Counted from the first letter of the stretch, positions 3,635 to 16,722 are shown. The stretch: DNA of 64,000 nt from Thermoproteota archaeon (GCA_049700215.1 JBNAVT010000005.1:26542-90541); one strand, 5' to 3'. Program-made: numbers and translations. The notes: a model not told the origin generated them from the letters alone.

Positions 3635-6600
3635 TCACGCTACTGTGAAGCTGTAGCATCCTGATAGGACTCTATACACGACGCAACCCTTTTTCATACC
3701 GATTAGCTCCACGCCCTCGGATTTTTCAACCGGCTTCCCGTTTTCCCTCACCCTACCCGGCTCGGTTGCTGGAACATATACCAGTGCTGAAGTGTTAGCC
3801 GGGAGGATGAGCTGCAGGTGGAAAGCCTCGCTGGAGAACCACCATTCCACTGAAATCGTTCCACGAATCGACTCGTAGCTCGCGTGAACATGCCCTAGTT
3901 CCCTCCAAGGGTTGGGCTTGATAATGATGCGTTTAAAGCCAGCGTCTTCAGCATCTATTCCCGCGACGGTTGAGAAAAGCCATTCGCCCACGCTTCCGAA
4001 AGCGTAATGGTTGAAAGAGTTCATGCCTGGTTCGTGAATCCCCTCTTCAGTCATACTGTTCCACCGTTCCCAAATGGTTGTAGCTCCGAGTTTAACCGGG
4101 TAGAGCCATGATGGATAGGTTTCCTGCAGGAGAAGCCTGTAAGCCACATCAGTCCTGCCATACTTGGTTAGCGCCCGCATGAGGTGCAGCGTCCCTACGA
4201 ATCCTGTGGTGAGATGCCATCCGTGGTCCTCAACATCCTTAACCAAGTGTTCTAACGCTGTTCTCTCCATCTCCTCAGGGAGCAGTTTCGAATCAAGTGC
4301 CAGAGCGTAACACGTCTGCGTCTCGCCTTTTATCCGTCCATCTGGTTGAACATACTCTTTAAGGAATGCTGAGCGAACATTTTCGAATAGTTCTTCAAAG
4401 CGTTCCGCGTCACCAGTTTCCCCTATTTCCCTGGCCATTACAGCCATAAGCTTGGCAACGTATGCGAAATAGGCTGTTGCAAGCACGTCCCTCGGTGTTT
4501 CAGAGCCTGCTGGAACCCAGTCGCCATACCCTGTTTCCGGCCGGAGGAACCCTCTGCTGTTTTCCACAAGATAATTGATGTAGCGCCTCATTTTCTCGTA
4601 GTGAAGCCGGATCACGCGCGTATCTCCGCATGTCCGCCAAAGCACGTAGGGTATGATGATTCCAGCGTCCCCCCAGCATGGTGTTCCAAACCCTGCTCCG
4701 GTCGCGGGTGCGACGTCAGGGTAGGCTCCGTCTTCTCTCTGGCTATCGTTCAAGTCGATCAACCATTTAGTCATGAAGGCTGAGATGTCGGCGAAGTAGG
4801 CTGCGGTTCTCGCAAAGATCTGTGCATCCCCAGTCCAGCCCTGCCGCTCGTCGCGCTGAGGGCAATCCGTCGGCACCTCGAAATAGTTGCCGCGCAGGCT
4901 CCAAAGAATGTTTTCCACAAGCCTGTTTAAAAGCGGGTTTGAGCATCTGAAGCTTCCGGTTATCGGAATATCCGTGTGAATAACGATGCCTGTCACAGCA
5001 TCCATAGGCGGCTTACCAGGGTAGCCTGAGACCTCGACATACCTGAAGCCATGATATGTGAAACGAGGCTCGAAAAACTCCTCGCTACCGCCTTTGCAAA
5101 AATAGGTGTCTGTGGCCCTGGCCCCCCTAAGGTTTGCAGTGTGTATAGTACCGTCAGGATTAAGGACTTCGGCGAAACGCAGCTTGATCCTCGTGCCTGG
5201 TTCCGCGTTTCTAACCCGTAGCCTAACGACGCCAACCATGTTCCGGCCGAAATCGAATATGAAAACACCCGGGCTGATCTCTCTCGCCGACTGGGCTGGC
5301 AGCTCCATCGTTTTCCTAACGGGTTCACCCGGATGGGCTGTCAGCTGCAGGCTTAAATAATCCGTAGAAACGTTCCCCCAAGCATCGTCTTTAAACCAGG
5401 GCTCATCCCATCCATGGATCTCGCGTCTAGCATCATAGGTTTCACCCATGTAGTTGTCGGCTTCCAGAATCGGCCCGTATGCTGACTTCCAACTCTCATC
5501 GCTGACGACAAGCTGGCGCTCGCCATCGTCATACTCTATCTCCAGCTGCACGAGGAGGCGTGGGCCGCGTCCAAACTTGTTCAGCCTACCCCATCCTCCT
5601 TGATACCCGGAGTACCATTCGCTGTGTAGAATCACTCCTATCGCGTTTTCTCCCTGGTTAAGAAGACCCGTAGCCTCATAGGTGCGGTAGTACGCGCGCC
5701 TCCAGTAATCAGACCATCCTGGTATGAAATAATCCTCGGTGACGCGCTTACCGTTTAAGCGAAGCTCGCAGCTTCCTAAAGCGCTAACGTAGATTAGGGC
5801 CCGCCTAGGCTTTTTCTTGACTGTGAAACTTTTCCTAAAGAATGGTGGCGGCCGAACATACGGGGGCTTCGTTGGTAAAACTCCCCACGGGGCGATTCTG
5901 AAGTCGCCAAGCTCAAGCGCACCAATCCATCCGGCATCATCGTAGCCAGGCTTCTCCCACCCTTCTTCAGCATGCATGGAGGATCTCCAGGTTCCGTCAG
6001 TAACTAGAATCAGTGGCTCACTATTTTCAAGTTCAACCACCATTTTTCCAAGCAAGCCTGCATGGCCGCTGGTGTTAGTAGCCTTAATCGCTAAAACATT
6101 CAGGCCAGCATGCAGCAGGTCCGTGATTTCAACCGTCTGCGGACGCTGCCAAGCATAAGGCTTACCGTCGCTCCTGCCGGCTTCCCTACCGTTTACGAAA
6201 AGCACAAACTGGTCGTCAGCAGTAATCAGAATTACTCCCTTAAGTATTTTCCTGTCTGCCGGCAGGCTTATTGCCCGACGGAAATAACGGTCTGCTGCAG
6301 GAGCCTCTTTAACGGGTTCCCCCTCTTTAAACCATATCCACTTGCATCCTTTGAAACTAGGCTCCTCCCATTCAGCATATTCATCATACCCTATCCACTT
6401 CGCCTTCCAATCATCCGGCTCGAGCAGGCCCATTGTCCAGTAGGCGGGCTCGCTCCACTCAGAGGGTCTTCCCTGCTTATCCCAGACCCGTACTTTCCAC
6501 CAGCACTCCATCCTGGATGAAAGTGTTTTCCCAGCGTATGTGATTTGGCTCGTCTCCTCAGACTGGACTTTCCCACTGTCCCATAGGTCGCCAATATCTT

Positions 6601-6829
6601 TCTCCAAGTTTGCCCTAGTGCTTGAAACAATGATCTGAAAGGCTGTCTGAAACTGTCCTCTTTCGGATGACTCAACGATCCAGCTTAACCTTGGTTTTAA
6701 AACATCTACTCCAAGAGGGTTAACCCTGTACTCGCAACGCAGTTTTCCAGCCTTTAAAGCGGGTTTCTCACCTTCGTAACCAGGCTTAGGCAAGCCGGTT
6801 GTTGTCGAATCCCCTCCAGCCGACTCCAA
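3635..6829 (-). CDS. alpha-L-rhamnosidase, glycoside hydrolase family 78
   Basis: 1064 aa. LRCEYRVNPLGVDV motif near the N-terminus. Bac_rhamnosid-type beta-sandwich and (alpha/alpha)6 regions, e.g. ...EPWFKDDAWG..., ...GDAQIFARTAAY.... No obvious signal peptide. Confidence 0.85.
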   Translation of the reverse strand: MESAGGDSTTTGLPKPGYEGEKPALKAGKLRCEYRVNPLGVDVLKPRLSWIVESSERGQFQTAFQIIVSSTRANLEKDIGDLWDSGKVQSEETSQITYAGKTLSSRMECWWKVRVWDKQGRPSEWSEPAYWTMGLLEPDDWKAKWIGYDEYAEWEEPSFKGCKWIWFKEGEPVKEAPAADRYFRRAISLPADRKILKGVILITADDQFVLFVNGREAGRSDGKPYAWQRPQTVEITDLLHAGLNVLAIKATNTSGHAGLLGKMVVELENSEPLILVTDGTWRSSMHAEEGWEKPGYDDAGWIGALELGDFRIAPWGVLPTKPPYVRPPPFFRKSFTVKKKPRRALIYVSALGSCELRLNGKRVTEDYFIPGWSDYWRRAYYRTYEATGLLNQGENAIGVILHSEWYSGYQGGWGRLNKFGRGPRLLVQLEIEYDDGERQLVVSDESWKSAYGPILEADNYMGETYDARREIHGWDEPWFKDDAWGNVSTDYLSLQLTAHPGEPVRKTMELPAQSAREISPGVFIFDFGRNMVGVVRLRVRNAEPGTRIKLRFAEVLNPDGTIHTANLRGARATDTYFCKGGSEEFFEPRFTYHGFRYVEVSGYPGKPPMDAVTGIVIHTDIPITGSFRCSNPLLNRLVENILWSLRGNYFEVPTDCPQRDERQGWTGDAQIFARTAAYFADISAFMTKWLIDLNDSQREDGAYPDVAPATGAGFGTPCWGDAGIIIPYVLWRTCGDTRVIRLHYEKMRRYINYLVENSRGFLRPETGYGDWVPAGSETPRDVLATAYFAYVAKLMAVMAREIGETGDAERFEELFENVRSAFLKEYVQPDGRIKGETQTCYALALDSKLLPEEMERTALEHLVKDVEDHGWHLTTGFVGTLHLMRALTKYGRTDVAYRLLLQETYPSWLYPVKLGATTIWERWNSMTEEGIHEPGMNSFNHYAFGSVGEWLFSTVAGIDAEDAGFKRIIIKPNPWRELGHVHASYESIRGTISVEWWFSSEAFHLQLILPANTSALVYVPATEPGRVRENGKPVEKSEGVELIGMKKGCVVYRVLSGCYSFTVA

Positions 6830-6929
6830 TTCCCCCTTAACTCCCCAAGCGTTTACTTTAAGCTTTTACAGTTTCAGGGGAAGTTTAATAATAAGATGGC
6901 GGTCTCATTACTGATTACTTTAAGGCTTC

Positions 6930-7964
6930 TCATACTTTACAATACTCCCGGCATTTTTCCATTAATGACATCACTTTTCTAACGCTTTCAGGCGTAACGC
7001 TCAAGGGGGCTCCCTCGCGCAGAGTCTTATAGAGCTCCTCGTAAAACAAGATTTCGCCGCGCTTAACATTCTCGTCTAGAACCCACTCCTCCTCCTTCCA
7101 AGGGATCTCCTCCCAATTGTAGCTGCGGTCTGGAGTCGGCCTTGTTTCAACCTGTCTAGGAGGAAGATCCTTAGGGTCGAAATACTTCCACCTTATCGAG
7201 TTCCCGCCTCCAGCAAGGCCTCCCTGAGTCCCCATTATCAGCCAATAATTCTGAGGGTAGGCGCATGCGCGAGTAACCTCTATGTCAACCTTCGTCGAGC
7301 CCGGCTCCCCAAGAATTATCTTAACATGGTCCTCCGCATCACCAAGAGTCAGGGTTCTCTGCAGGTCGCAGAACAGTAGTTCAAGCCTCTCTCCAACGAG
7401 TTGAACAGCCTGGTCTATAAGGTGAGAAGCATTATTGTTAAGTTCCCCTCCTCCAAACTTTTTCAACGTCTGCCAATCCCAGCGTCTACCGAACGAATGC
7501 AGACATATTTTTACAAGGACTATGCGCCCCAGCTTTCCGGATCTAACTATCTCCTTAACCTTTAAGAAGTCTGGACTGTACCTCTTGTTTTGGAAAACAG
7601 TCAGTATCCTTCCGGACTCTTTTGCAGTCTTTATCATCTCTTCTGCTTCAGCCAGGCTTGTAGCCATAGGCTTCTCGCACACGACGTTTTTCCCGGATTT
7701 CAACGCTTCTATAGTTTGAGGAGCATGAAGGTGGCTCGGCGTAGCTACGACTACTAGTTCAACCTCTTCGTCTCTTATGAGCGAGTTGAAATCGGGGTAT
7801 GCTCTGCAACCGAACCTGTTCACAGCCTCTTTTCTTCTCTCCTCAAGCGGGTCGAAGACCGCAACCACGTTATACATGCTGGAGCATTTTTCAAGGGCGT
7901 TGGCATGAATATCCCACCCGCTTCTCCCAAGTCCAGAGATCCCAACGTTCACCCGGCTGCTCAT
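6930..7964 (-). CDS. Gfo/Idh/MocA family NAD(P)-dependent oxidoreductase
   Basis: N-terminal Rossmann segment VNVGISGLGRSGWDIHANAL, ...EKPMATSLAEAEEM..., and the C-terminal alpha/beta domain typical of the family. Confidence 0.85.
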   Translation of the reverse strand: MSSRVNVGISGLGRSGWDIHANALEKCSSMYNVVAVFDPLEERRKEAVNRFGCRAYPDFNSLIRDEEVELVVVATPSHLHAPQTIEALKSGKNVVCEKPMATSLAEAEEMIKTAKESGRILTVFQNKRYSPDFLKVKEIVRSGKLGRIVLVKICLHSFGRRWDWQTLKKFGGGELNNNASHLIDQAVQLVGERLELLFCDLQRTLTLGDAEDHVKIILGEPGSTKVDIEVTRACAYPQNYWLIMGTQGGLAGGGNSIRWKYFDPKDLPPRQVETRPTPDRSYNWEEIPWKEEEWVLDENVKRGEILFYEELYKTLREGAPLSVTPESVRKVMSLMEKCREYCKV

Positions 7965-7986: not shown

Positions 7987-8745
7987 TCAGAACAGCCTTA
8001 AAAGGTATCTTGCAAACTCGCGGACCCCCGTTTTAGGATCCTCCTTCTCCTCGTACTCGATCGAGATAAAACCGTTGTAATCCTTATCCTCCAGAATCCT
8101 CTTAACCTTCTCATAGTCCACCCTAATGTTTTCAGAGACACTTACCTTGCCATGAATATGCACGGCGTATGGGACTGTCTTAGCAATGTCTTTGTACGTA
8201 GACTCCCTATAGTTGCCGAGGTCTAGGTTAACCCTTAGCCATGGGGAACCCACACTCTCAACAATCCTAACCACGCTGTCCGCCCTAGCAGTTATGCCTC
8301 CGTGATTCTCCAAGGCTATTACAACACCGTTTTCATCAGCGTATTTTACGCATCTCCTCAAAGCTTCTATCGTCCACAGTATTGCCTGTTCCTCAGAATA
8401 CCCCTCGGGCACGTAGCCGCCGAAAACCCGTAGAGCGGGAGCACCCAGCTCACGGGCAATACTCACTCCTTCCTCCACAGCCTTTATCATCCTCTCCCTT
8501 TCCATAGGATCCGGGTTACAGAAGTTCGTCGAGATTCCGGCGCAGGAGATTGGTAGCCCCCGTGAAAGTGCAATCCTTTTCAAATTCCTGAAGTATTGCG
8601 GTTCCCTTGAGGGAAGCCAGTAGAGGGTCATCTCCACCCCGTCCAGCCCAATGCTATGAGCCTCCTCAATGAAATCCTCATAGCTCATTCTCCCATCCTT
8701 AAGATAATCCCTGTAAGAGTAAGCCGCGCAACCGATCTTTATCAT
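7987..8745 (-). CDS. sugar phosphate isomerase/epimerase (xylose isomerase-like TIM barrel, AP_endonuc_2)
   Basis: MIKIGCAAYSYRDY...GLDGVEM...ALENHGGIT...HIHGK pattern of the xylose-isomerase-like TIM-barrel family. Confidence 0.8.
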   Translation of the reverse strand: MIKIGCAAYSYRDYLKDGRMSYEDFIEEAHSIGLDGVEMTLYWLPSREPQYFRNLKRIALSRGLPISCAGISTNFCNPDPMERERMIKAVEEGVSIARELGAPALRVFGGYVPEGYSEEQAILWTIEALRRCVKYADENGVVIALENHGGITARADSVVRIVESVGSPWLRVNLDLGNYRESTYKDIAKTVPYAVHIHGKVSVSENIRVDYEKVKRILEDKDYNGFISIEYEEKEDPKTGVREFARYLLRLF

Positions 8746-9015
8746 TTCTCTCCGTGAGGCTGAAAAAGGCTATTTATGTTTTTTACTCTCCACGTCGTCT
8801 AGCACTGTAATGCCAGCCTTAGCACGTAGCGCGCGCGCTTATTTTCCTCCAAAAGGGCAAATTCCTCCGGTTCCTCCTCTGTTTTCAGCTCCTCCATGCC
8901 TTGCGGGATTGCAAGGGGTGCCTACCGCGCGCTTGGGATCATCATAATTGGGAAGGGTTACTGATGTGCCAACGAACATGTACTCCAAATCCCAGCGGGG
9001 TAGCGTGCACTACTT

Positions 9016-9768
9016 TCAGTCGAAACCGATTCTTCTCAAGTAACTCCTGCTCTCCAACATGCTTTTAAAAGGGCTCCCCGGGGTCCAGTCTTGTTCAACG
9101 ACAACCCACTTTACTCCAAGCCGCGTTGCGAAGCCAAGTATGGCTGGAAAATCTATGGAGCCCCATCCAAGCTCGGAGAACCTTCTGTTTTTCATATCCT
9201 CCTCAGTCCCGTCTTTCAGATGCAAGTACGCGATCCTCTCCTTATTAGCTTTGATGAACTGAAGCGGGTCTGCCCCGCCGAATTTAACCCAGTAAGTGTC
9301 AACGCATAGTCCAACTAACTCAGGCTCAGTGTTCTGAATGATTATTTTTATTCCCCTCTGATTATCAGCTATTTCATGCCCATGATTATGGTAGCAGGTT
9401 TTAACCCCGTGTTCCCTGGAGATTTTCCCAGCCTTGTTTAAAAACTCTGCGCAATTAAAATAGTCTTCCTCTAAGCCTTTTCCACCGGGACCGCTAAAAG
9501 TCAAATATTCTCCTTCAAGCATTTCTAAAAGCCTCGCCGCCTGTTCAACCTGCTCAATGTTTCCAACTCCCATGTGTAACGCGGCAAGCCTTAAACCGTT
9601 TTCCAGTAGAAGCCTCCTTTTCTCCATAGTGTCTGTAGAAAATATTTCGGGAGAGGCTTCTATGCCCTCATACCCGGCTTCCCTCACCTCGTCCAAAACT
9701 TCTTTAAGGTTTTCCCGCGGCTTTGTCCCCCAGATGATCAGTTGAGCACCAACCTTCAACCTGCCCAT
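9016..9768 (-). CDS. sugar phosphate isomerase/epimerase (xylose isomerase-like TIM barrel)
   Basis: ...GYEGIEAS...YHNHGHEIADN...LHLKDGTEED... A second paralog of the fold found at 7987-8745. Confidence 0.8.
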   Translation of the reverse strand: MGRLKVGAQLIIWGTKPRENLKEVLDEVREAGYEGIEASPEIFSTDTMEKRRLLLENGLRLAALHMGVGNIEQVEQAARLLEMLEGEYLTFSGPGGKGLEEDYFNCAEFLNKAGKISREHGVKTCYHNHGHEIADNQRGIKIIIQNTEPELVGLCVDTYWVKFGGADPLQFIKANKERIAYLHLKDGTEEDMKNRRFSELGWGSIDFPAILGFATRLGVKWVVVEQDWTPGSPFKSMLESRSYLRRIGFD

Positions 9769-9849
9769 GCTTTTTCGCCTAAGCTTAACGATATAAATCT
9801 TTCCAGGATTTTCATGAGAAAGCTTAAATAGTTTTCAAAAGGCTTTCCG

Positions 9850-10989
9850 TTGACTTTGAGCATTGATGTGGCAAAATGGATTAAGAAGGTGAGCTCACAT
9901 TTAGATCTTGAGAAGATCGATGAGGCGAGAAGCAGGATTGCTGCTGCATGGAATTTTAAACAAGTGGAAACGCCTCCTTTAATCATTAACTGTCCCCCTC
10001 CGGATCCTTGGCCCTCCTTCAAATATTATGAAACATACCGTGATGTGGATAAGATGCTTGTGTCTCAACTAGCCTCAGTATACTCTCACGCCCTCCTTCA
10101 GGATGACGGCATGCCATGTGTAAGGGCTAATTTCGGCGTAGGAATTATTCCGAACGGATTTGGAAGCGAGGTTATCGTACAGCATGATTCTGACCAGATG
10201 CCGTGGGTTAAGGAGCCGGTTTTAAAGGAGGATCCTCCAGACCTGGGAGAGTTGAAGGATCCTTTGTCTCGTCAAAGCTTGATGACCCGCGTCATTGAAA
10301 CTGAAGAGTATTTTGTTAAAATGCTCGACGGAACCGGGGTGAAAGTATATCTATGCGACACCCAGGGGCCTTTAGACGTCGCCTATCTCCTCAGGGGGCC
10401 AAAGCTCCTAAGCGATTTCTACCGTCACCCGGACTTTGCAAAGGAGCTCCTTAAAAGGGTTGCTGAAGTATACGTGGATTTCTCGGTTGAGCAGAAGAAA
10501 ATAGTGGGGGAGCCTCTTGACCAGGGTTTCCATGGGACGCCTAACGTGTGGATGGATAAAGGCGGTGTTAGACTATGCGAAGACGTGGCTGTCATGATGA
10601 ACCCGGCTCAATACAGAAAGTTCTGCATCCCGGTTAACGATTTTTCACTGAGACCGTTTAATGGAGGCATGGGTCACTTTTGCTGCAGCGAGGCTTCAGA
10701 CGGCAGACAGGTTCTTGAACCGATATTGTCAAGCGGAGCCTTTAAAGCGTTCTTTTTCGGAAGCCCAACCAAGTTCTACAGCCTAAGAGAAACCGTCGAA
10801 TTGTTTCAAAGGAAACGCGTATGCCTAGTGTGGACTGACGGCCCCCAGGGGGGTGAGAAACCCGAGTCCTGGGTTAAGAGGGTGTCGAATTCCCTTGAAG
10901 ATAAAACGGGGATCATATTCTCTATAAGCGTAGAAAGCTTTAACACTGCACGCGAGGTTCTTAAAGAATGGAAAAGAGCATTCGGATAG
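9850..10989 (+). CDS. URO-D/MtaA-like family protein (second paralog)
   Basis: Central block CDTQGPLDVAYLLRGPKLLSDFYRHPDFAKELLKRVAEV...MNPAQYRKFCIPVNDF matches the URO-D family core (tlqGPftlas.l.g...dP.l.h.ll.k.t; ...sP..f.ef..Py). Confidence 0.5.
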   Translation: MTLSIDVAKWIKKVSSHLDLEKIDEARSRIAAAWNFKQVETPPLIINCPPPDPWPSFKYYETYRDVDKMLVSQLASVYSHALLQDDGMPCVRANFGVGIIPNGFGSEVIVQHDSDQMPWVKEPVLKEDPPDLGELKDPLSRQSLMTRVIETEEYFVKMLDGTGVKVYLCDTQGPLDVAYLLRGPKLLSDFYRHPDFAKELLKRVAEVYVDFSVEQKKIVGEPLDQGFHGTPNVWMDKGGVRLCEDVAVMMNPAQYRKFCIPVNDFSLRPFNGGMGHFCCSEASDGRQVLEPILSSGAFKAFFFGSPTKFYSLRETVELFQRKRVCLVWTDGPQGGEKPESWVKRVSNSLEDKTGIIFSISVESFNTAREVLKEWKRAFG

Positions 10990-11035: not shown

Positions 11036-11371
11036 TCAAGTATTTCCCTCCAAACCAGTTTGTTGAGGAGGTAGCCCTATGCGTATCGGCCTGCCTTCGC
11101 TGAGGGCTTGAGCAGTCTTTCTCCTAGCGCTCTGCAAAAGCCTCCATACGGTTCCTCTTGAGACCCCCATCCTCTCCCCCGCTTCCTCCTGAGAAAGCCC
11201 CTCTAGGTCAACGAGCCTCACAGCCTCCAGTTCATCAGGCTCAAGGTAAACAGGATCCGGTTTCCCCTGTGTTCCAACGGGGTCTAGCCCGGTAATCGGC
11301 GGAATAGCCCCCAGCCATACTGGTTTAGGCATTCTTCCTCTTCGACCATGCCTGTGTCTTCTCCTATACAT
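11036..11371 (-). CDS. DUF134 (UPF0251) family small HTH protein, putative transcriptional regulator
   Basis: Basic N-terminus RRRHRHGRRGRMPKPVW..., then ...PDELEAVRLVDLEGLSQEEAGERMGVSRGTVWRLLQSARRK... This is the sigma-70 region-4-like HTH characteristic of DUF134. Confidence 0.75.
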   Translation of the reverse strand: MYRRRHRHGRRGRMPKPVWLGAIPPITGLDPVGTQGKPDPVYLEPDELEAVRLVDLEGLSQEEAGERMGVSRGTVWRLLQSARRKTAQALSEGRPIRIGLPPQQTGLEGNT

Positions 11372-11471
11372 TGCTCATCGGCTTCCGGGCCGCAATATTT
11401 ATATATTTGTGCACAGTCTCGTTATTCATGAAAAATGTGCATAATCACAAAAATGGAGGTGGGTTTGGAAA

Positions 11472-11729
11472 ATGAGGTATAGGCACAGGAATCTTTTCTA
11501 CCTAACCGGTCTCCCGGGGTGCGTCAGGCTCGGCTTCTCCCCAGGATGGTTTGGACCAGCTTCTGGAGGCACGCCGCCTGCACCGGTTCCACCTAGAATG
11601 CCCTTCCCGCCGGCTTATAGCAGGGAGCAGGAGCGAATGGTTCTTGAGCAGCAGATTAAGATCTTGGAGTCTCAGCTGGAAGCCGTTAGAAAACGGCTTG
11701 AGGAATTAAGCGGTAAAGGAAGTCAGTGA
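11472..11729 (+). CDS. small Gly/Pro-rich protein with C-terminal coiled coil, DUF5320-like
   Basis: GLPGCVRLGFSPGWFGPASGGTPPAPVPP... followed by REQERMVLEQQIKILESQLEAVRKRLEEL. A paralog lies immediately downstream. The start codon is uncertain. Confidence 0.5.
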   Translation: MRYRHRNLFYLTGLPGCVRLGFSPGWFGPASGGTPPAPVPPRMPFPPAYSREQERMVLEQQIKILESQLEAVRKRLEELSGKGSQ

Positions 11730-11746
11730 GCAGGGGGTGATGATTT

Positions 11747-11995
11747 ATGCCAAGCGGGTTCTGCTGGCTCTGGTGGCTGGCACCGCCCTACTGGCATCCT
11801 TATGCTCGGTGCTTCTTGAGGCCATACCCATGGTTTCCACGGGCTCCGTGGAGAGCATGGATGCACGGGCCGCTGCTGTTTACTTCACCCTCAGCGACTA
11901 GGGAGCAGGAGAGGCTTTTTCTTGAAGAACAGAGAAGACTTATCCAGGAGGAGCTCGATTACGTAAACAAGAGGCTTGAGGAGTTAAGGAAGTAA
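11747..11995 (+). CDS. small Trp/Pro/aromatic-rich protein with C-terminal coiled coil, DUF5320-like paralog
   Basis: ...WLWWLAPPYWHPYARCF...PWFPRAPWRAW... followed by REQERLFLEEQRRLIQEELDYVNKRLEEL. The C-terminal motif matches that of 11472-11729. Confidence 0.5.
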   Translation: MPSGFCWLWWLAPPYWHPYARCFLRPYPWFPRAPWRAWMHGPLLFTSPSATREQERLFLEEQRRLIQEELDYVNKRLEELRK

Positions 11996-12150
11996 TTGTC
12001 TAGGATAAGGGTTCCTTGAAAAAGGAGTAGAGGTGGTTCAAGACTGAGGTCTATAAAGAGTCCGGCAGGAGGGTTGGTGAAAACCCTAGGGGATGGTTGA
12101 TTAACAGCAAGACGTATATAGATGCAAGTATCCAGGCATGGTGATTCGGA

Positions 12151-12522
12151 ATGAGGATCGTAATACCTGTGGAGGAGGATCGTGACTTGGATTCACGCTT
12201 ATCCGAACACTTCGGCAGAGCACCCTTCTTCCTAGTCCTTGAGATGGATGACGAGGGGAGAGTTTTAAAACAGGAGACTTTGCGTAACGAGAGTCAACAC
12301 TTCGGGGGGATGGGTCGGCCTGCAGACCTTGTACTGCGGCTTAAGCCGGATGCAGTCATTGTATACGGGATGGGGCCTAGGGCGCTCGACATATTTCAAC
12401 AGGCTGGGACAGCTGTCTTGAAAGCTAATTCAAACATTGTCAGAAACTTGGTTTCATCCTATGCTAAAGATGAGCTTGAAGAGTTGACTGAAGGCTGTCG
12501 TCAAGCCCGTCATAAACATTAA
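12151..12522 (+). CDS. NifB/NifX/NafY-family dinitrogenase FeMo-cofactor-biosynthesis-like domain protein
   Basis: MRIVIPVEED...LSEHFGRAPFFLVLEMDDEGRV...GGMGRPADLVLRLKPDAVIVYGMGPRALDIFQQAGTAV. Canonical PF02579 pattern. Confidence 0.8.
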   Translation: MRIVIPVEEDRDLDSRLSEHFGRAPFFLVLEMDDEGRVLKQETLRNESQHFGGMGRPADLVLRLKPDAVIVYGMGPRALDIFQQAGTAVLKANSNIVRNLVSSYAKDELEELTEGCRQARHKH

Positions 12523-12578
12523 TCCGCGAGTCTTCTGCTAAGTTTATAAGTTGAAGCCGTAGGCTATGTTAAGCAGCA

Positions 12579-13154
12579 ATGCGGGATGACTATGCTTGGA
12601 ACCGTATTATTCTGGAGGCTTACGGTGTCTCTAGGGATCTAGGGGTTCCTGCGATAGAGATGTATGATGGCCACGTGCTTTTCTCAACGGCCTTTCTAAC
12701 GGCTATACGGTTTGGATGTTTGAAAGCCATGGACGCTGGTGCGGGCGTAGGTTTTTCAACGGTATGGATTGCTAAAGCTATTTTAGGGTCAGGGGTTGAT
12801 GGTAACGTCTACGCTGTTGAGAAGAATATTCGAAGATTCAGGAGGCTCAAGGAGCTTGTTGACAAGCATCGTTTAGAGCATCTAATCACGCCGGTTAACA
12901 GCGACGTGTTAGAATACTGCAGGAAAGTCGGTGAGCTGAATCTAGTCTTCATGGATATTGAAAAGGAGCAGTACTTAGAGTTTTTCAACCTGATTAAGAG
13001 CAAGATTCTTATAGGCGGAGTGATGCTTGCACACAACGTTAAACACCCGTATGGCACCGTAGAGGATTTTCTAAACGAGGCTTCTGGTGGAATGTGGAGA
13101 ACCGTTATAGTGCCTACTGGGGCAGGAGTCTCCATAAGCATTAAAATTGGTTAA
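12579..13154 (+). CDS. class I SAM-dependent O-methyltransferase (family 3/caffeoyl-CoA OMT-like)
   Basis: ...AMDAGAGVGFSTVWIAKA...DGNVYAVEKN...LVFMDIEKEQYLEFFNLIKSKILIGGVMLAHNV matches the OMT family 3 layout. Confidence 0.7.
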   Translation: MRDDYAWNRIILEAYGVSRDLGVPAIEMYDGHVLFSTAFLTAIRFGCLKAMDAGAGVGFSTVWIAKAILGSGVDGNVYAVEKNIRRFRRLKELVDKHRLEHLITPVNSDVLEYCRKVGELNLVFMDIEKEQYLEFFNLIKSKILIGGVMLAHNVKHPYGTVEDFLNEASGGMWRTVIVPTGAGVSISIKIG

Positions 13155-14098
13155 GACTGTAAGACCGGTTTTCTGGATGATTCCCTAATGCTTTCCTCAA
13201 TCGCTTTAACGATGGCTACTGGCTCAAGCATCTCTTCTCCTGAAAGTATCCACTGCTTGTTGTCAAGCATCTCCTTAATCCTCATCATCCCCCTCTTATA
13301 GCAGTCCTTGGAGTCAACCTTGGCTGAGAAATAGGTTTTCTTAGTCAGTCCCTCAACAGAGAAGACATAGGGCATTTCAGGAGCGATCTTTACTGTTCCA
13401 ATCAGTTTATCGTGAACCAGTGTCGCAACTATGTTTTTATTCTTCACGGTTGCATAGATCTCTCTCACCCCGTTCCCAGCTATCTCGTTGAAAATTTCCG
13501 CACAATGCACCCCGTAGAAGATTAATCCGCCATACTCGCTTTCAAGGTCTCCTGGGCCTAGGACGCTCAGGAAAATCGGCTCCTCGTTCTTAAAAATTTT
13601 TTTAAGCTCTTGCACGGCGTCCGTAAACCTCAGGGTCGAAAAGCTCGTTAAAAGGGTTTGTTTCTCCTTCGCTAACTCGATGATTTTTTCAGCGTCTGCT
13701 ACCGTGGCTGCTAGAGGCTTATCCACGAAAACCGGAATCCTGTTTTCTATGAATGGCTTAGCGTATTTCAGGTGCAGCCCGCCGTGTCTAAACTCCACGA
13801 ACGCGACATCAATGTTTCCAATCATCTCGTTTACATCTGAAACAATGTTTTCAATACTGCCTTTCTCTGCAACCTCTCTATTCCTTGCTTCGTCGAACCC
13901 GAAGAGGTGGGTTGCTTTGAAACCCGGTACGTAATTTTCCCTGTCTATGCCGTTCGCGATCTGTGAAAAAGTTATTGCATGAGAATTGTCTGACCCAACT
14001 ATTCCTATCCTGTAAACCATGTGGGCGGGTGAGTGGAACGACTTTATAAGTTTTTTCAGAATCACTGTTTTTTCAGCTTGAACAGGAAGTGGCAGCAT
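13151..14098 (-). CDS. Gfo/Idh/MocA family oxidoreductase
   Basis: YRIGIVGSDNSHAITF... N-terminal Rossmann segment, ...PVFVDKPLAATVADAEKIIELAKEK.... The gene is convergent with the OMT and their stops overlap by 4 nt. Confidence 0.8.
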   Translation of the reverse strand: MLPLPVQAEKTVILKKLIKSFHSPAHMVYRIGIVGSDNSHAITFSQIANGIDRENYVPGFKATHLFGFDEARNREVAEKGSIENIVSDVNEMIGNIDVAFVEFRHGGLHLKYAKPFIENRIPVFVDKPLAATVADAEKIIELAKEKQTLLTSFSTLRFTDAVQELKKIFKNEEPIFLSVLGPGDLESEYGGLIFYGVHCAEIFNEIAGNGVREIYATVKNKNIVATLVHDKLIGTVKIAPEMPYVFSVEGLTKKTYFSAKVDSKDCYKRGMMRIKEMLDNKQWILSGEEMLEPVAIVKAIEESIRESSRKPVLQS

Positions 14099-14496
14099 TC
14101 ATCTCCTCTCATTAAAAGCTTGTCTCTAACCAGTTCTATCCCATGGTCAAATCCTTTCACAACATAGTGGTCGCCGCTGCAGATCACTTTTTCACCCACG
14201 TCGGATGCGTTGAACTTTTTAAAGATTTCAGCGTGGACGCACTTCTTAACAATAACCTCCAAGGCCTCTTCGCTCTCCTCCAAAACTTCGAATTCATGAG
14301 CCTCCCTACTGAACAATGTTAGAAAGTATCTGGGAGTTTTATCCCTCGCCTCTATGCCTCTCTTCCTCCATTCCTCCTCAATCCTTCTATTCCTCCAGTC
14401 CACCAAAACGTCCAGCGCCTCTTTCCCAAACTCTTTCTCAAGAATCCGACTCATCATAATTAAAGAAAAATCTCTATAATATCTTAATTCGCTCAT
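14062..14496 (-). CDS. hypothetical protein, possibly ATC-hydrolase-like (PF14196)
   Basis: 144 aa, acidic. Cys-rich C-terminus ...KVICSGDHYVVKGFDHG...GDECCHF. The family assignment is from memory only. Confidence 0.4.
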   Translation of the reverse strand: MSELRYYRDFSLIMMSRILEKEFGKEALDVLVDWRNRRIEEEWRKRGIEARDKTPRYFLTLFSREAHEFEVLEESEEALEVIVKKCVHAEIFKKFNASDVGEKVICSGDHYVVKGFDHGIELVRDKLLMRGDECCHFLFKLKKQ

Positions 14497-14659
14497 TTCT
14501 AAACCTAAACGGCTCTTCTCACTATTAAATCTTTCCTAAAGTAAGCATGATTCCTGCGCAATATTTCTTAAGGATGTTTCCTGGAAACCCTGCGAAACTT
14601 GTTCAATCGCCTTATGCAGAAGAATTAAATAGTTTTTCTCTCCCAATAGACGTGGATTC

Positions 14660-15394
14660 GTGATGGGAGCTGGAAGCATGGTTGTAGTCGAAAACCTGGT
14701 TAAACGCTTCGGGGATCTGGCGGCTGTCGACGGGGTTTCGTTAAGAATTGAGAAGGGTGCAGTATTCGGGTTAATAGGTCCGAACGGTGCTGGCAAGACT
14801 ACCATTCTAAGAATAATGGCGACACTCCTCCTGCCCACAAGCGGCTACGTCAACATACTTGGGTATGATGCTGTTAAGGAGGCTGGTAAAATCAGGCCTT
14901 TCATCTCATACTTGGCTGAGGACGCTGGGACATATAGAAACCTGAGCGGCCGTGAATACTTGTCTATAGTGGCCAGGATATACTTTGATTCGGATACTGA
15001 GGCGTCTAAAGCTGTTGAGGATGCGGTAAGAATCTCAGGGCTGGGTGATAGGGTGGATGATAAGATGAAGACTTACAGCAAGGGGATGAAGAGGAGGCTC
15101 CAGATAGCGAGAGCATTAATGACTAAGCCGAGGCTAGCGATATTAGACGAGCCTACTGCAGGCCTAGACGTTTTTCACGCGAAACACATAAGGGAGGTTG
15201 TGAGCAGACATGTCAAGGAAGGTGGAACAGTGGTTCTTTCAAGCCACAATATGCTTGAGGTCGAATACTTGTGTACTAGAGTTGCTTTCATACACCGTGG
15301 GCATGTCCTTTTTGAAGGAGCGCCGGAGGAGATTAAAAATGAACTCAGAGTTTCGAATCTCGAAGAGGCATTCATCGAGGTGACCAGTAGATGA
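14660..15394 (+). CDS. ABC transporter ATP-binding protein (ABC-2 type exporter)
   Basis: Walker A GPNGAGKTT, ABC signature YSKGMKRRLQIARAL, Walker B ILDEPTAGLD, H-loop SSHNM. The stop overlaps the start of the permease gene. Confidence 0.9.
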   Translation: MMGAGSMVVVENLVKRFGDLAAVDGVSLRIEKGAVFGLIGPNGAGKTTILRIMATLLLPTSGYVNILGYDAVKEAGKIRPFISYLAEDAGTYRNLSGREYLSIVARIYFDSDTEASKAVEDAVRISGLGDRVDDKMKTYSKGMKRRLQIARALMTKPRLAILDEPTAGLDVFHAKHIREVVSRHVKEGGTVVLSSHNMLEVEYLCTRVAFIHRGHVLFEGAPEEIKNELRVSNLEEAFIEVTSR

Positions 15395-16722
15395 GGAAGC
15401 TTGTTTCACTGGTTGAGAAGGAGGTTAAGGATCTTCTAAGAGACCCCAGGATATACATTGGCCTGGTTGTTCCCGTGGTGCTGATGCCCTTACTGGGTTT
15501 TCTAATGTCCACATCGATGAGCAGCTCTATTGAAGCCGGGGCTAAGGGTTTGAAAATAGCTGTACTCGACTACGATAAGACCGTTTTAAGCAACGCCTTT
15601 CTAAACCTTTCTAGGAGCCTAGGGGCGGATGTTAAGAGTATTGATGTTGCTGACGTTGAAACCGCGGTCAGTGAAGCGAGAAACCTCGGTTCAACCGCTT
15701 TAATAGTTATAGGGAGAGGGTTTGAGGATGATCTGGTTAACTTCAGGAGGGCAAGAGTTGAAGTATACGTCGTAATGGAGACCATGAGCCTAGGCTCAAT
15801 AGGCGCATACTCTGCCGTTGAAGGATTATTGAGTGTGTCCTCGAAGATTTTCAGCAACATGTTGATCTCTAAGCTTAACTCAAACATCTCTCCCGATGTT
15901 GTTCGAGAACCGTTTAACATTTCGACGCGCTCAATACTCAAGGATAAAATAATCGAGGTTCCTCCTCAAGTACTTTTCAACCAACTCTTAATGGGGTACA
16001 GCATTATGATTCCGCTGCTGCTTTTAATGCTGTCTATTACTGTCGTCCAGTTTGCTGCTACTGCAACCGCGGTTGAGAATGAGGAGAAAACCCTGGAGAC
16101 TCTCTTGACTTTCCCGGTGACGCGCTACGACATCCTGCTGGCTAAGCTGCTGGGCTCATCCATCCTGGCTGTAATCGGGAGCATCCTGTTTACTGGAGGG
16201 TTCATCCTATACTTTAACAACATGCTCACCATGTCTGGTTTCAATTTTCCCGTGGGAGACGTTTCTCAACTGCTTCCCTCACCCCCGCCTGAGAGCTTCA
16301 TTCTTCTCGCTGTCAGCCTGATTCTTGCAATACTTTTCGTAACGTCTCTCGGAGTGGCGATCGGAGCATTAAGCAGCGACGTCAGGATGGCGAACTCCCT
16401 CCTCGGAGTGGTAATAGTTCCGATAATGGTGCCCTCGCTACTCATGATGTATGGGGACCTCAGCACACTGCCCTTAACCCTTAAACTTCTAGTGTACGCT
16501 CTGCCCACATCCTACCCCATAATGATCGCTAAAGACATGGTTATGACGCCAATATCCTTTGAAGCCATTCTCGGAATCCCGTATTCTGCAGCCCTAACGG
16601 TTCTCGTCCTCTACGCTACGAGCATGCTACTGGCGCCGGAGAAACTCTTAACGATTCAATACAGGCTGAGGCTCAGGGGTTCTAAGAGACGGCAGATCAA
16701 GGAGCTTGAAACCAGTCTATAG
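15391..16722 (+). CDS. ABC-2 family transporter permease
   Basis: 443 aa. N-terminal TM helix, then a large extracytoplasmic domain, then about 5 C-terminal TM helices (ABC2_membrane-like). Translationally coupled to the ATPase. Confidence 0.8.
   Translation: MRKLVSLVEKEVKDLLRDPRIYIGLVVPVVLMPLLGFLMSTSMSSSIEAGAKGLKIAVLDYDKTVLSNAFLNLSRSLGADVKSIDVADVETAVSEARNLGSTALIVIGRGFEDDLVNFRRARVEVYVVMETMSLGSIGAYSAVEGLLSVSSKIFSNMLISKLNSNISPDVVREPFNISTRSILKDKIIEVPPQVLFNQLLMGYSIMIPLLLLMLSITVVQFAATATAVENEEKTLETLLTFPVTRYDILLAKLLGSSILAVIGSILFTGGFILYFNNMLTMSGFNFPVGDVSQLLPSPPPESFILLAVSLILAILFVTSLGVAIGALSSDVRMANSLLGVVIVPIMVPSLLMMYGDLSTLPLTLKLLVYALPTSYPIMIAKDMVMTPISFEAILGIPYSAALTVLVLYATSMLLAPEKLLTIQYRLRLRGSKRRQIKELETSL

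Follow-up and report, generated by a model that had tools for sequence, protein, structure and literature searches.

Within a 64-kb stretch of DNA from a Thermoproteota archaeon (GCA_049700215.1, JBNAVT010000005.1:26542-90541; 64,000 nucleotides, referred to here as the window), positions 11036 to 13154 carry a gene cluster in which a gene for a DUF134 helix-turn-helix (HTH) protein is divergent from genes for two DUF5320-type mini-proteins (mini1 and mini2), a NifX-like protein and a class I methyltransferase. We conclude, with moderate confidence, that this locus is a reduced archaeal form of an anaerobe-specific, ORP-like (orange protein complex-like) metallocluster-carrier module, that it is repressed by DUF134, and that its DUF5320 proteins serve as coiled-coil adaptors, with a biochemical function that we infer. 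Conservation of the DUF134/DUF5320/alpha-type NifX core of the cluster extends from Bathyarchaeia to both Asgard archaea and Euryarchaeota. The original prediction for this DNA had suggested that the cluster handles a metallocluster or other cofactor, and we keep this as the most reasonable, if inferential, reading.

All five open reading frames (ORFs) named in the original prediction are found at its coordinates and are intact in the window. DUF134 (11036-11371, 111 amino acids [aa], PF02001) is on the minus strand, and mini1 (11472-11729, 85 aa, PF17253, DUF5320 type A), mini2 (11747-11995, 82 aa, DUF5320-like, type C), the NifX-like gene (12151-12522, 123 aa, PF02579, alpha subtype) and the methyltransferase gene (12579-13154, 191 aa, PF13578, class I SAM-dependent) are on the plus strand. 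Profile searches support the families that had been assigned to them (DUF134, DUF5320, Nitro_FeMo-Co and class I methyltransferase). DUF134 scores 70.9 bits against PF02001 (Pfam gathering threshold [GA], 27; E = 1.4e-19), and the NifX-like protein scores 58.5 bits against PF02579 (GA, 26.3; E = 8.6e-16). The DUF5320 assignment, which had been made for both mini-proteins, stands by profile for mini1, with 31.3 bits against PF17253 (GA, 27; E = 4.8e-7; profile positions 44 to 99 only), and not for mini2, which at 25.2 bits is under the same threshold. The homology of mini2 is otherwise supported: a protein identical to it (P0076) is named DUF5320 by NCBI, and a BLASTP comparison of mini1 with mini2 gives 37% identity over 67 aa (E = 4e-11), the likeness being mainly in the C-terminal heptad helix. 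With respect to Pfam PF17253 and PF02001 (UPF0251, COG1342), mini1 and the regulator are thus members that reach the thresholds, and mini2 is a divergent relative.

The conservation of the cluster was measured in other genomes. We kept 80 loci from Bathyarchaeia, Asgard archaea, ANME-1/Methanophagales, Methanosarcinales, Methanocellales, Thermoplasmata, Thermococci and one Desulfobacteria bin, and in the 76 loci outside the window's clade that bear a type-A DUF5320 gene, we counted features within 3 kb of that gene. Iterative hidden Markov models (HMMs) for types A, B and C and for NifX cross-contaminated each other through NifX-DUF5320 fusions, and ORFs were instead labeled from domain HMMs and motifs. 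A NifX-like gene lies near type A in 88% of these loci, DUF134 in 63%, a MinD-type ATPase in 62%, a type B or type C mini-protein in 43%, a NifX-DUF5320 fusion in 39% (30/76), a radical S-adenosylmethionine (SAM) gene in 18% (14/76) and a methyltransferase in none. When only the 33 loci that have 3 kb or more of sequence on each side are counted, the values are 91% for NifX, 70% for DUF134 and 73% for the ATPase. The neighborhood is therefore conserved, and the co-occurrence of DUF134, NifX-like and DUF5320 proteins, often with Mrp/MinD-type ATPases, that the original prediction had described is confirmed by measurement. The gene order is DUF134< A> B> (C>) (NifX-coiled-coil>) NifX> in Bathyarchaeia and Asgard archaea and DUF134> ATPase> NifX(-coiled-coil)> A> NifX> ATPase> ATPase> in Euryarchaeota, and by Pfam the cluster ATPases carry inserted 2x[4Fe-4S] ferredoxin domains. 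The radical-SAM protein of the cluster, seen in 16 loci (e.g., L020 2369-3367 and L007 7957-8967), is 311 to 343 aa long with a weakly matching C-terminal winged-helix region; no specific NCBIfam family fits it, and its similarity to TatD-linked radical-SAM proteins, a W-cofactor maturase and MoaA is only weak.

The 100-bp divergent spacer between DUF134 and mini1 (11372-11471) contains a conserved promoter and operator that were not part of the original prediction. Alignment of the spacers 5' of type A from 24 loci of Bathyarchaeia and Thorarchaeota gives the consensus CCGCAAnnTTTATATAg-TTTTTGTGCATtATCACATAATTG-ATAATGTGCATAATCACAAAAAgaGGTGa...ATG, in which two 14-bp dyads ~30 bp apart (both of the form TGTG-N6-CACA; TGTGCAT(A/T)ATCACA) come after a TATA box. 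The TATA box of the window (TTTATATA, 11398-11405), which is kept in the 24 aligned promoters, probably serves both directions, and the adjacent CCGCAA at 11390-11395 is conserved and resembles a TFB-recognition element (BRE). Putative operator site 1 (11408-11421, plus strand), which reads TGTGCACAGTCTCG compared with a consensus of TGTGCATTATCACA, falls after the TATA box and before the expected transcription start; the closest full-length relative, L007, has the intermediate form TGTGCATAGTCTCACA. Putative operator site 2 (11436-11449, plus strand; TGTGCATAATCACA) is a perfect match to the clade-wide dyad; it closely follows the expected transcription start and precedes the mini1 Shine-Dalgarno sequence (GGAGGTG, 11455-11461). 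The exact site 2 14-mer is present once in the 64-kb window and in 22 of the fetched loci, always within ~100 bp upstream of the type-A gene. In clusters from Euryarchaeota, an analogous but distinct perfect palindrome, TGAATATATATTCA, is present; its 12-nucleotide (nt) core has 51 copies in 34 loci, of which 20 immediately precede DUF134 and 28 immediately precede a NifX or NifX-coiled-coil gene (48/51). This palindrome is found twice per Euryarchaeal DUF134 cluster (L040 to L090; e.g., L047 3778-3789 and 5081-5092). Such lineage-specific dyads at the same cluster promoters would be expected if a dedicated dimeric regulator had evolved together with its operator. Archaeal factors that bind downstream of, or overlap, the TATA box or the start site repress transcription, and repression is the likely mode here because the dyads are downstream of the TATA box.

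DUF134 is the sole DNA-binding protein of the cluster and is predicted to be a cluster-specific transcription factor. Its HTH (residues 43 to 85, with matches to Sigma70_r4 and r4_2) is like that of sigma-70 region 4, its N terminus is Arg rich, and it has no cysteines. By sequence, it belongs to the family without being the NCBIfam equivalog PRK04217, because its score of 90.6 bits is under the cut-off of 115. The DUF134 protein of L007 is 79% identical to it. The DUF134 mRNA is probably leaderless, because the ATG is ~25 nt from the shared TATA box and is not preceded by a Shine-Dalgarno sequence.

The mini-proteins belong to a set of small proteins of three types, and one C-terminal heptad helix is common to all of the DUF5320 forms that bear a coiled coil. 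Type-A proteins are 105 to 130 aa long, start with MGYRHRYMYYLTGLPGWxRFGFSPGWLGRSPTGLPPTAQWLMQSGLLPQFMQYLQ, and continue with a Pro/Thr/Ala linker and the terminal heptad helix KEQEKQMLEQQVKMLESQLEALRKRLEELSK. In mini1, the linear motif YRHRNLFYLTGLPGCVRLGFSPGW at the N terminus is followed by a Pro-rich linker and then by ~3.5 heptads of C-terminal helix (residues ~55 to 79). Type-C proteins (77 to 95 aa; MPRGFGFWLWWLTAPYW..RCRWFPWLPRWWWTGIYGP..) end in the same heptad helix as type A, and mini2, which is preceded by the Shine-Dalgarno sequence GGGGGTGAT, has that helix behind a Trp/Pro/Tyr/Arg-rich head with a degenerate WRCRWFPWLPRWWWTGIYGP motif. When read from the sequence, the heptad a/d register is identical in mini1 and mini2, with Arg63 of mini2 at the place of Ile62 of mini1. 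The shared coiled-coil motif given in the original prediction is correct overall, except for one spacing that should be (I/L)....L, with four residues rather than three. The duplication with N-terminal divergence that had also been noted did not arise locally, since mini1 and mini2 are orthologues of old subtypes A and C that are kept in other Bathyarchaeia. They are not a recent tandem duplicate, because mini2 is 57% identical over its full length to the type-C protein of L007 (6611-6865, E = 3e-35) and 50% identical to that of L020, compared with 37%, in the helix, to mini1. Type B (62 to 80 aa, MPRG..GWGRGFGNPYPFCRWFPWLPRWWWAYP..) lacks the coiled coil and is missing from the window. It matches no Pfam or NCBIfam model, had been left uncalled in both of the loci that came with gene calls, and may be an unannotated small-protein family; type-B ORFs, of 62 to 86 aa, are present in 25 loci from Bathyarchaeia to Thorarchaeota (e.g., L007 6376-6588, L010 6363-6623 and L020 4255-4476).

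Mini1 has 75 homologues in the protein database; most have a DUF5320 domain, and those with a named source are from Bathyarchaeota, Thorarchaeota or Thermoproteota. Another 229 genomic relatives came from scanning a single genome for each species. For mini2, only 17 relatives, many of them truncated, are present among 1.84 billion representative proteins, which fits under-calling of such ORFs. An AlphaFold model of a full-length type-A orthologue is confident for the C-terminal helix only (predicted local distance difference test [pLDDT] score, 70 to 82; N-terminal motif, <50; mean, 57). The conserved N-terminal motif of type A is thus predicted by the model to be disordered, as would be expected of a docking peptide. 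An alternative frame over the mini2 head contains a 54-aa ORF (window 11737-11901, plus strand) whose product would be a hydrophobic peptide resembling a helix (..RVLLALVAGTALLASLCSVLLEAIPMV..). This ORF is open in three species (also L092 797-961 and L007 6592-6756) and has stops or no start codon in the other orthologues, and it is probably a compositional shadow of TGG/CCN-rich codons.

The NifX-like protein has alpha-subtype motifs (MRIVIPVEEDRG..SEHFGRAP..HFGG..ELTEGC..ARH) and is 62 to 65% identical to the alpha copies of L007 and L020, compared with 25 to 28% for beta and gamma types. It is presumed, from its family, to bind a metallocluster or cofactor. In full clusters, alpha NifX adjoins the MinD/ferredoxin ATPases and is usually just upstream of them. 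NifX, NafY and the C-terminal domain of NifB are carriers of iron-molybdenum cofactor (FeMo-cofactor) precursors in nitrogenase assembly. The window protein has in common with them PF02579 and the idea of a small carrier that holds a metallocluster non-covalently. In contrast, its sequence is closer to non-nif COG1433 and Orp proteins, and there are no nif-like genes among the ORFs around the locus or elsewhere in the 64-kb window, so a nitrogenase role is not supported. Its COG1433 relatives in the PDB have E-values of 6e-13 to 4e-6, the best being TM1290 (1T3V/1O13; 6e-13). TM1290, MTH1175 (1EO1), PH0822 (2YX6), TM1816 (1RDU) and MJ0327 (2QTD; PMC2954228) belong to the same single-domain family and share SEHFGRAP with the window protein; like it, they have no assigned function and are outside nif operons. 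Unlike it, they are isolated, with no defined ligand or partner, and the window protein has the alpha-type TEGC..ARH tail.

The NifX-DUF5320 fusions physically tie the mini-proteins to the carrier domain. In the fusion of L020 (4782-5405), Pfam places PF02579 at residues 13 to 102 and PF17253 at residues 106 to 189. In all, 32 fusion ORFs of 177 to 214 aa (others are L015 4396-4989, minus strand, and L053 5102-5746) consist of a NifX domain, a Gly/Met/Arg-rich linker (GMGRGMGMGRG...) and a DUF5320 coiled coil, and the Met/Arg-rich linker might bind metal or anionic clusters.

Among studied systems, the nearest to this cluster is the ORP (orange protein) cluster of Desulfovibrio vulgaris Hildenborough, which includes Orp3/Orp4, Orp5/Orp8 and Orp9 (MrpORP), and in which the Orp3/Orp4 ATPases carry inserted 2x[4Fe-4S] ferredoxin domains (PMC6345978). 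Both are clusters of anaerobes built around small NifX-like "Di-Nase" (PF02579) proteins, and full archaeal clusters also have MinD-type ATPases with the same type of ferredoxin insertion. As a stand-alone NifX-like protein, the product of 12151-12522 is of the Orp5/Orp8 type, and it matches the C-terminal Di-Nase domain of the NCBIfam MrpORP model (positions 265 to 364, E = 7e-9). However, it is not an Mrp/NBP35-Di-Nase fusion of the MrpORP/Orp9 type, since only the Di-Nase part matches (35.4 bits versus a cut-off of 450), and it has one Cys, compared with three in the MrpORP Di-Nase domain. HMM scans of the whole 64-kb window found no Mrp/MinD ATPase (and therefore no Orp3/Orp4-type ATPase with inserted ferredoxin, which is present in 62% of the related archaeal loci), no radical-SAM gene and no further NifX or DUF5320 gene; that this locus has no Mrp ATPase had been noted in the original prediction. 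The window locus is archaeal and has a DUF134 HTH protein with dyad operators, whereas the ORP cluster has sigma-54, OrpR and IHF. DUF5320 mini-proteins, which are present here, are not mentioned in the Orp papers that were searched (DVU2107 itself was not compared), and DVU2107 came up only once in the literature, in a sigma-54 regulon paper (PMC4641369). The locus is therefore not a member of the ORP complex proper, because it has a different regulator and DUF5320 mini-proteins and lacks the ATPase and Mrp proteins.

The methyltransferase does not appear to be part of the module. It has a class I fold (PF13578 Methyltransf_24, 36.8 bits; GA, 26.3), and its match to the O-methyltransferase family PF01596 is marginal (23.9 bits; GA, 22), with sub-threshold matches to TRM5/TYW2 and CbiT having comparable or better E-values. 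The original prediction had placed this gene in the module. It is confined to the window's own genus-level clade (L004, L091 and L093), in which the whole neighborhood is syntenic, and is found in 0/76 loci outside it. It probably has its own promoter, because a TATA-like box (TTTATAA, 12546-12552) lies ~30 nt upstream, and it is probably an adjacent lineage-specific gene outside the conserved module.

Based on these comparisons, we propose the following working model. DUF134 would bind the dyads as a dimer and would repress the mini-protein/NifX operon, and probably its own leaderless gene too, until some signal relieves repression; repression is favored because the dyads sit between the TATA box and the Shine-Dalgarno sequence. 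Mini1 and mini2 would assemble through their shared coiled coil, and their disordered aromatic/Pro-rich heads would be short docking motifs, so that the mini-proteins would act as adaptors or scaffolds for the NifX-like carrier. The cluster held by this carrier would be of the Fe-S or heterometal-sulfide kind, like those of the Orp proteins and of the Di-Nase domain in MrpORP (PMC6345978). Compared with L020, the lineage would have lost type B, the beta and gamma NifX genes, the MinD/ferredoxin ATPases, the radical-SAM gene and the middle of type A. Because of these losses relative to full clusters such as L020, the window module would be a minimal one, possibly under weakened selection, and the methyltransferase would be an unrelated neighbor. 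L007 has a 70-aa MinD/ParA ATPase stub (7726-7938), with Walker A kept, after its alpha NifX gene, and this looks like an intermediate stage of a loss that has been completed in the window. Because only this stub is left in L007, the window appears to be the last stage of a reduction that starts from L020 and passes through L007.

Several observations weigh against this model. Site 1 is degenerate in the window, where it retains its left half-site but not its right one, and we infer the binding of DUF134 to the dyads by association only. With regard to the ligand, the NifX-like protein has a single Cys and four His residues, and the ATPases that accompany it elsewhere are missing from the window. 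Mini1 is an internally deleted type A in which ~30 to 40 residues are gone (the TAQWL..QYLQ segment, with two short predicted helices) and in which Cys replaces the near-invariant Trp of TGLPGW. No experiment, described function or structure for DUF134 or DUF5320 was found in the literature, family descriptions or PDB. The families are mentioned only in passing in the literature that was found (a scan for G-quadruplex motifs, PMC7565180), searches for COG1342, COG1149 and UPF0251 returned nothing relevant, and matches in the PDB are weak and limited to designed coiled coils and sigma-factor region 4. The A/B/C subtypes, NifX fusions and operators are not included in the Pfam descriptions that were found. 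The remaining observations of this kind concern the rate at which the mini-protein genes evolve and frameshifts in sister species, and they also bear on the main rival explanation, which is that the module is a decaying remnant with little or no function that is drifting to pseudogenes after loss of the ATPases, type B, the other NifX copies and the radical-SAM gene.

We consider decay unlikely, and yet it accounts for several observations. The stepwise reduction, the deletion and Trp-to-Cys change in mini1, and the degenerate site 1 are as expected from it. Four syntenic species-level relatives (the window, L093, L091/L092 and L003 to L006) could be compared for ratios of nonsynonymous to synonymous substitution rates (dN/dS). 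These ratios are 0.28 to 0.55 for type A (mini1) and 0.55 to 1.6 for type C (mini2), compared with 0.05 to 0.24 for neighboring genes (NifX, 0.10 to 0.16; DUF134, 0.14 versus L093; methyltransferase, 0.15 to 0.24; flanking genes, 0.05 to 0.22). The mini-protein genes thus evolve fast, and their substitutions fall evenly on all three codon positions, in contrast to the usual third-position excess of the flanking genes. Overlapping or antisense coding was rejected as a cause of this pattern, since the annotated frame alone is stop-free across orthologues and the five alternative frames have averages of 3 to 7 stops. The pattern could reflect relaxed protein constraint on the disordered heads, RNA-level constraint, or both. 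The dS values of mini1 and mini2 are low (0.06 to 0.29) compared with those of most neighbors, and their overall nucleotide identity is equal to that of the flanking genes. In L003 and L004, the DUF134, NifX and methyltransferase genes have five frameshifting indels in 1,284 bp, compared with 0 in 3,171 bp of flanking genes (L004 region 5570-7688; L003 is 100% identical over the compared region, and L006 gene calls are equivalent). L091 has a frameshift in DUF134 at the equivalent of window position 11175, and L092 has a split NifX (1213-1581). However, these indels are in short homopolymer runs of metagenome-assembled genomes (MAGs) that, judging by their accessions, come from a single project, and one identical deletion that is common to MAGs of two species is missing from an independent Logan assembly; some may be sequencing errors. 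For this reason, we downgraded pseudogenization in sister species, which had been a candidate for firm evidence of co-loss that included the methyltransferase. Against decay, the five ORFs are intact in both the window and L093, and NifX and DUF134 are under purifying selection, with the methyltransferase in the same low range. The type-A coiled coil and N-terminal motif are kept within the clade, the A-to-C region is 80 to 87% identical between species compared with 49 to 60% for a non-coding spacer, and site 2 and the TATA box are perfectly preserved.

Three further explanations concern the mini-proteins themselves. They could be regulatory partners of DUF134 (anti-repressors or co-repressors, loosely like anti-sigma factors) rather than adaptors of a NifX carrier. 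In Bathyarchaeia and Asgard archaea, type A is always the first gene and is divergent from DUF134, its very strongly conserved yet probably disordered N-terminal motif resembles a docking peptide, and DUF134, with no cysteine or obvious sensor domain, would need a sensing partner. However, the DUF5320 tail is fused to NifX and never to DUF134 among the fusions, type A is more often beside NifX (88%) than beside DUF134 (63%), and in Euryarchaeota type A is downstream of NifX with an ATPase gene between it and DUF134; we consider this explanation less likely than decay. Far less probable is the idea that the Trp/Pro/Arg-rich mini-proteins are precursors like those of ribosomally synthesized and post-translationally modified peptides (RiPPs), tailored here by the methyltransferase and elsewhere by the radical-SAM enzyme. 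The small size and aromatic-rich composition of the ORFs, the adjacent methyltransferase and the 14 loci with a radical-SAM gene within 3 kb would fit such a role. Support for it is poor: no SPASM or RiPP-maturase signature is present in the radical-SAM protein, whose gene is missing from 82% of loci; in addition, the module has no maturase, protease or exporter and so does not qualify as a RiPP cluster, the methyltransferase is clade specific, and the conserved C-terminal coiled coil is also found fused to a folded NifX domain. Finally, the mini-ORFs are short and of low complexity, mini2 is under the Pfam threshold, and neither gene has a third-position substitution excess, as might be the case for spurious open frames in a long spacer. 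That possibility, which the original prediction had raised, is effectively refuted by hundreds of homologues with conserved motifs across archaeal phyla (for mini1, the 75 homologues and 229 relatives described above), by mini2 orthologues with 50 to 57% identity, by stops in all alternative frames, by Shine-Dalgarno sequences at the right distance and by a conserved position in the cluster. The mini-ORFs are genuine genes.

A broader form of the carrier-module reading, which we offer tentatively and regard as unlikely to hold in full, is that DUF5320 proteins are adaptors consisting of a head plus a common coiled coil and that, in anaerobic archaea, they co-assemble into a multivalent metallocluster-carrier scaffold under a hitherto unrecognized DUF134 repressor/operator system with lineage-specific 14-bp dyads. 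The head would be the TGLPGW region in type A, the Trp/Pro/Arg-rich head in types B and C, or a whole NifX domain. If true, this would be a new, small-protein-based organization of cofactor trafficking and would give a first function to two DUF families. ORP-like clusters are widespread in anaerobes and have been studied only in Desulfovibrio; the predicted DUF134 operator (11436-11449), the A/B/C typing with its shared coiled coil and the NifX-DUF5320 fusions are testable handles on them. The window copy is an ordinary reduced example of a known, uncharacterized cluster type and is not the best system for such study.

The window sequence is identical to a contig of the Thermoproteota MAG GCA_049969395.1, its lineage is Bathyarchaeia-like, and its TTTATATA boxes and GGTGA-type Shine-Dalgarno sequences are consistent with an archaeal origin. 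Rfam and tRNA searches of the window returned no family and no tRNA, and a structured RNA or riboswitch in the spacers was rejected on the basis of the Rfam result. The surroundings of the locus (window 7987-10989 and 13151-16722; L001 1485-4679) resemble a sugar-utilization neighborhood, with two AP_endonuc_2/xylose-isomerase-like TIM-barrel genes, GFO/IDH/MocA oxidoreductases and, just outside, a rhamnosidase. These neighboring genes, which also include an ABC-2 exporter, an ATC_hydrolase-family gene and a divergent URO-D/MtaA-like gene, have no evident tie to metallocluster handling.

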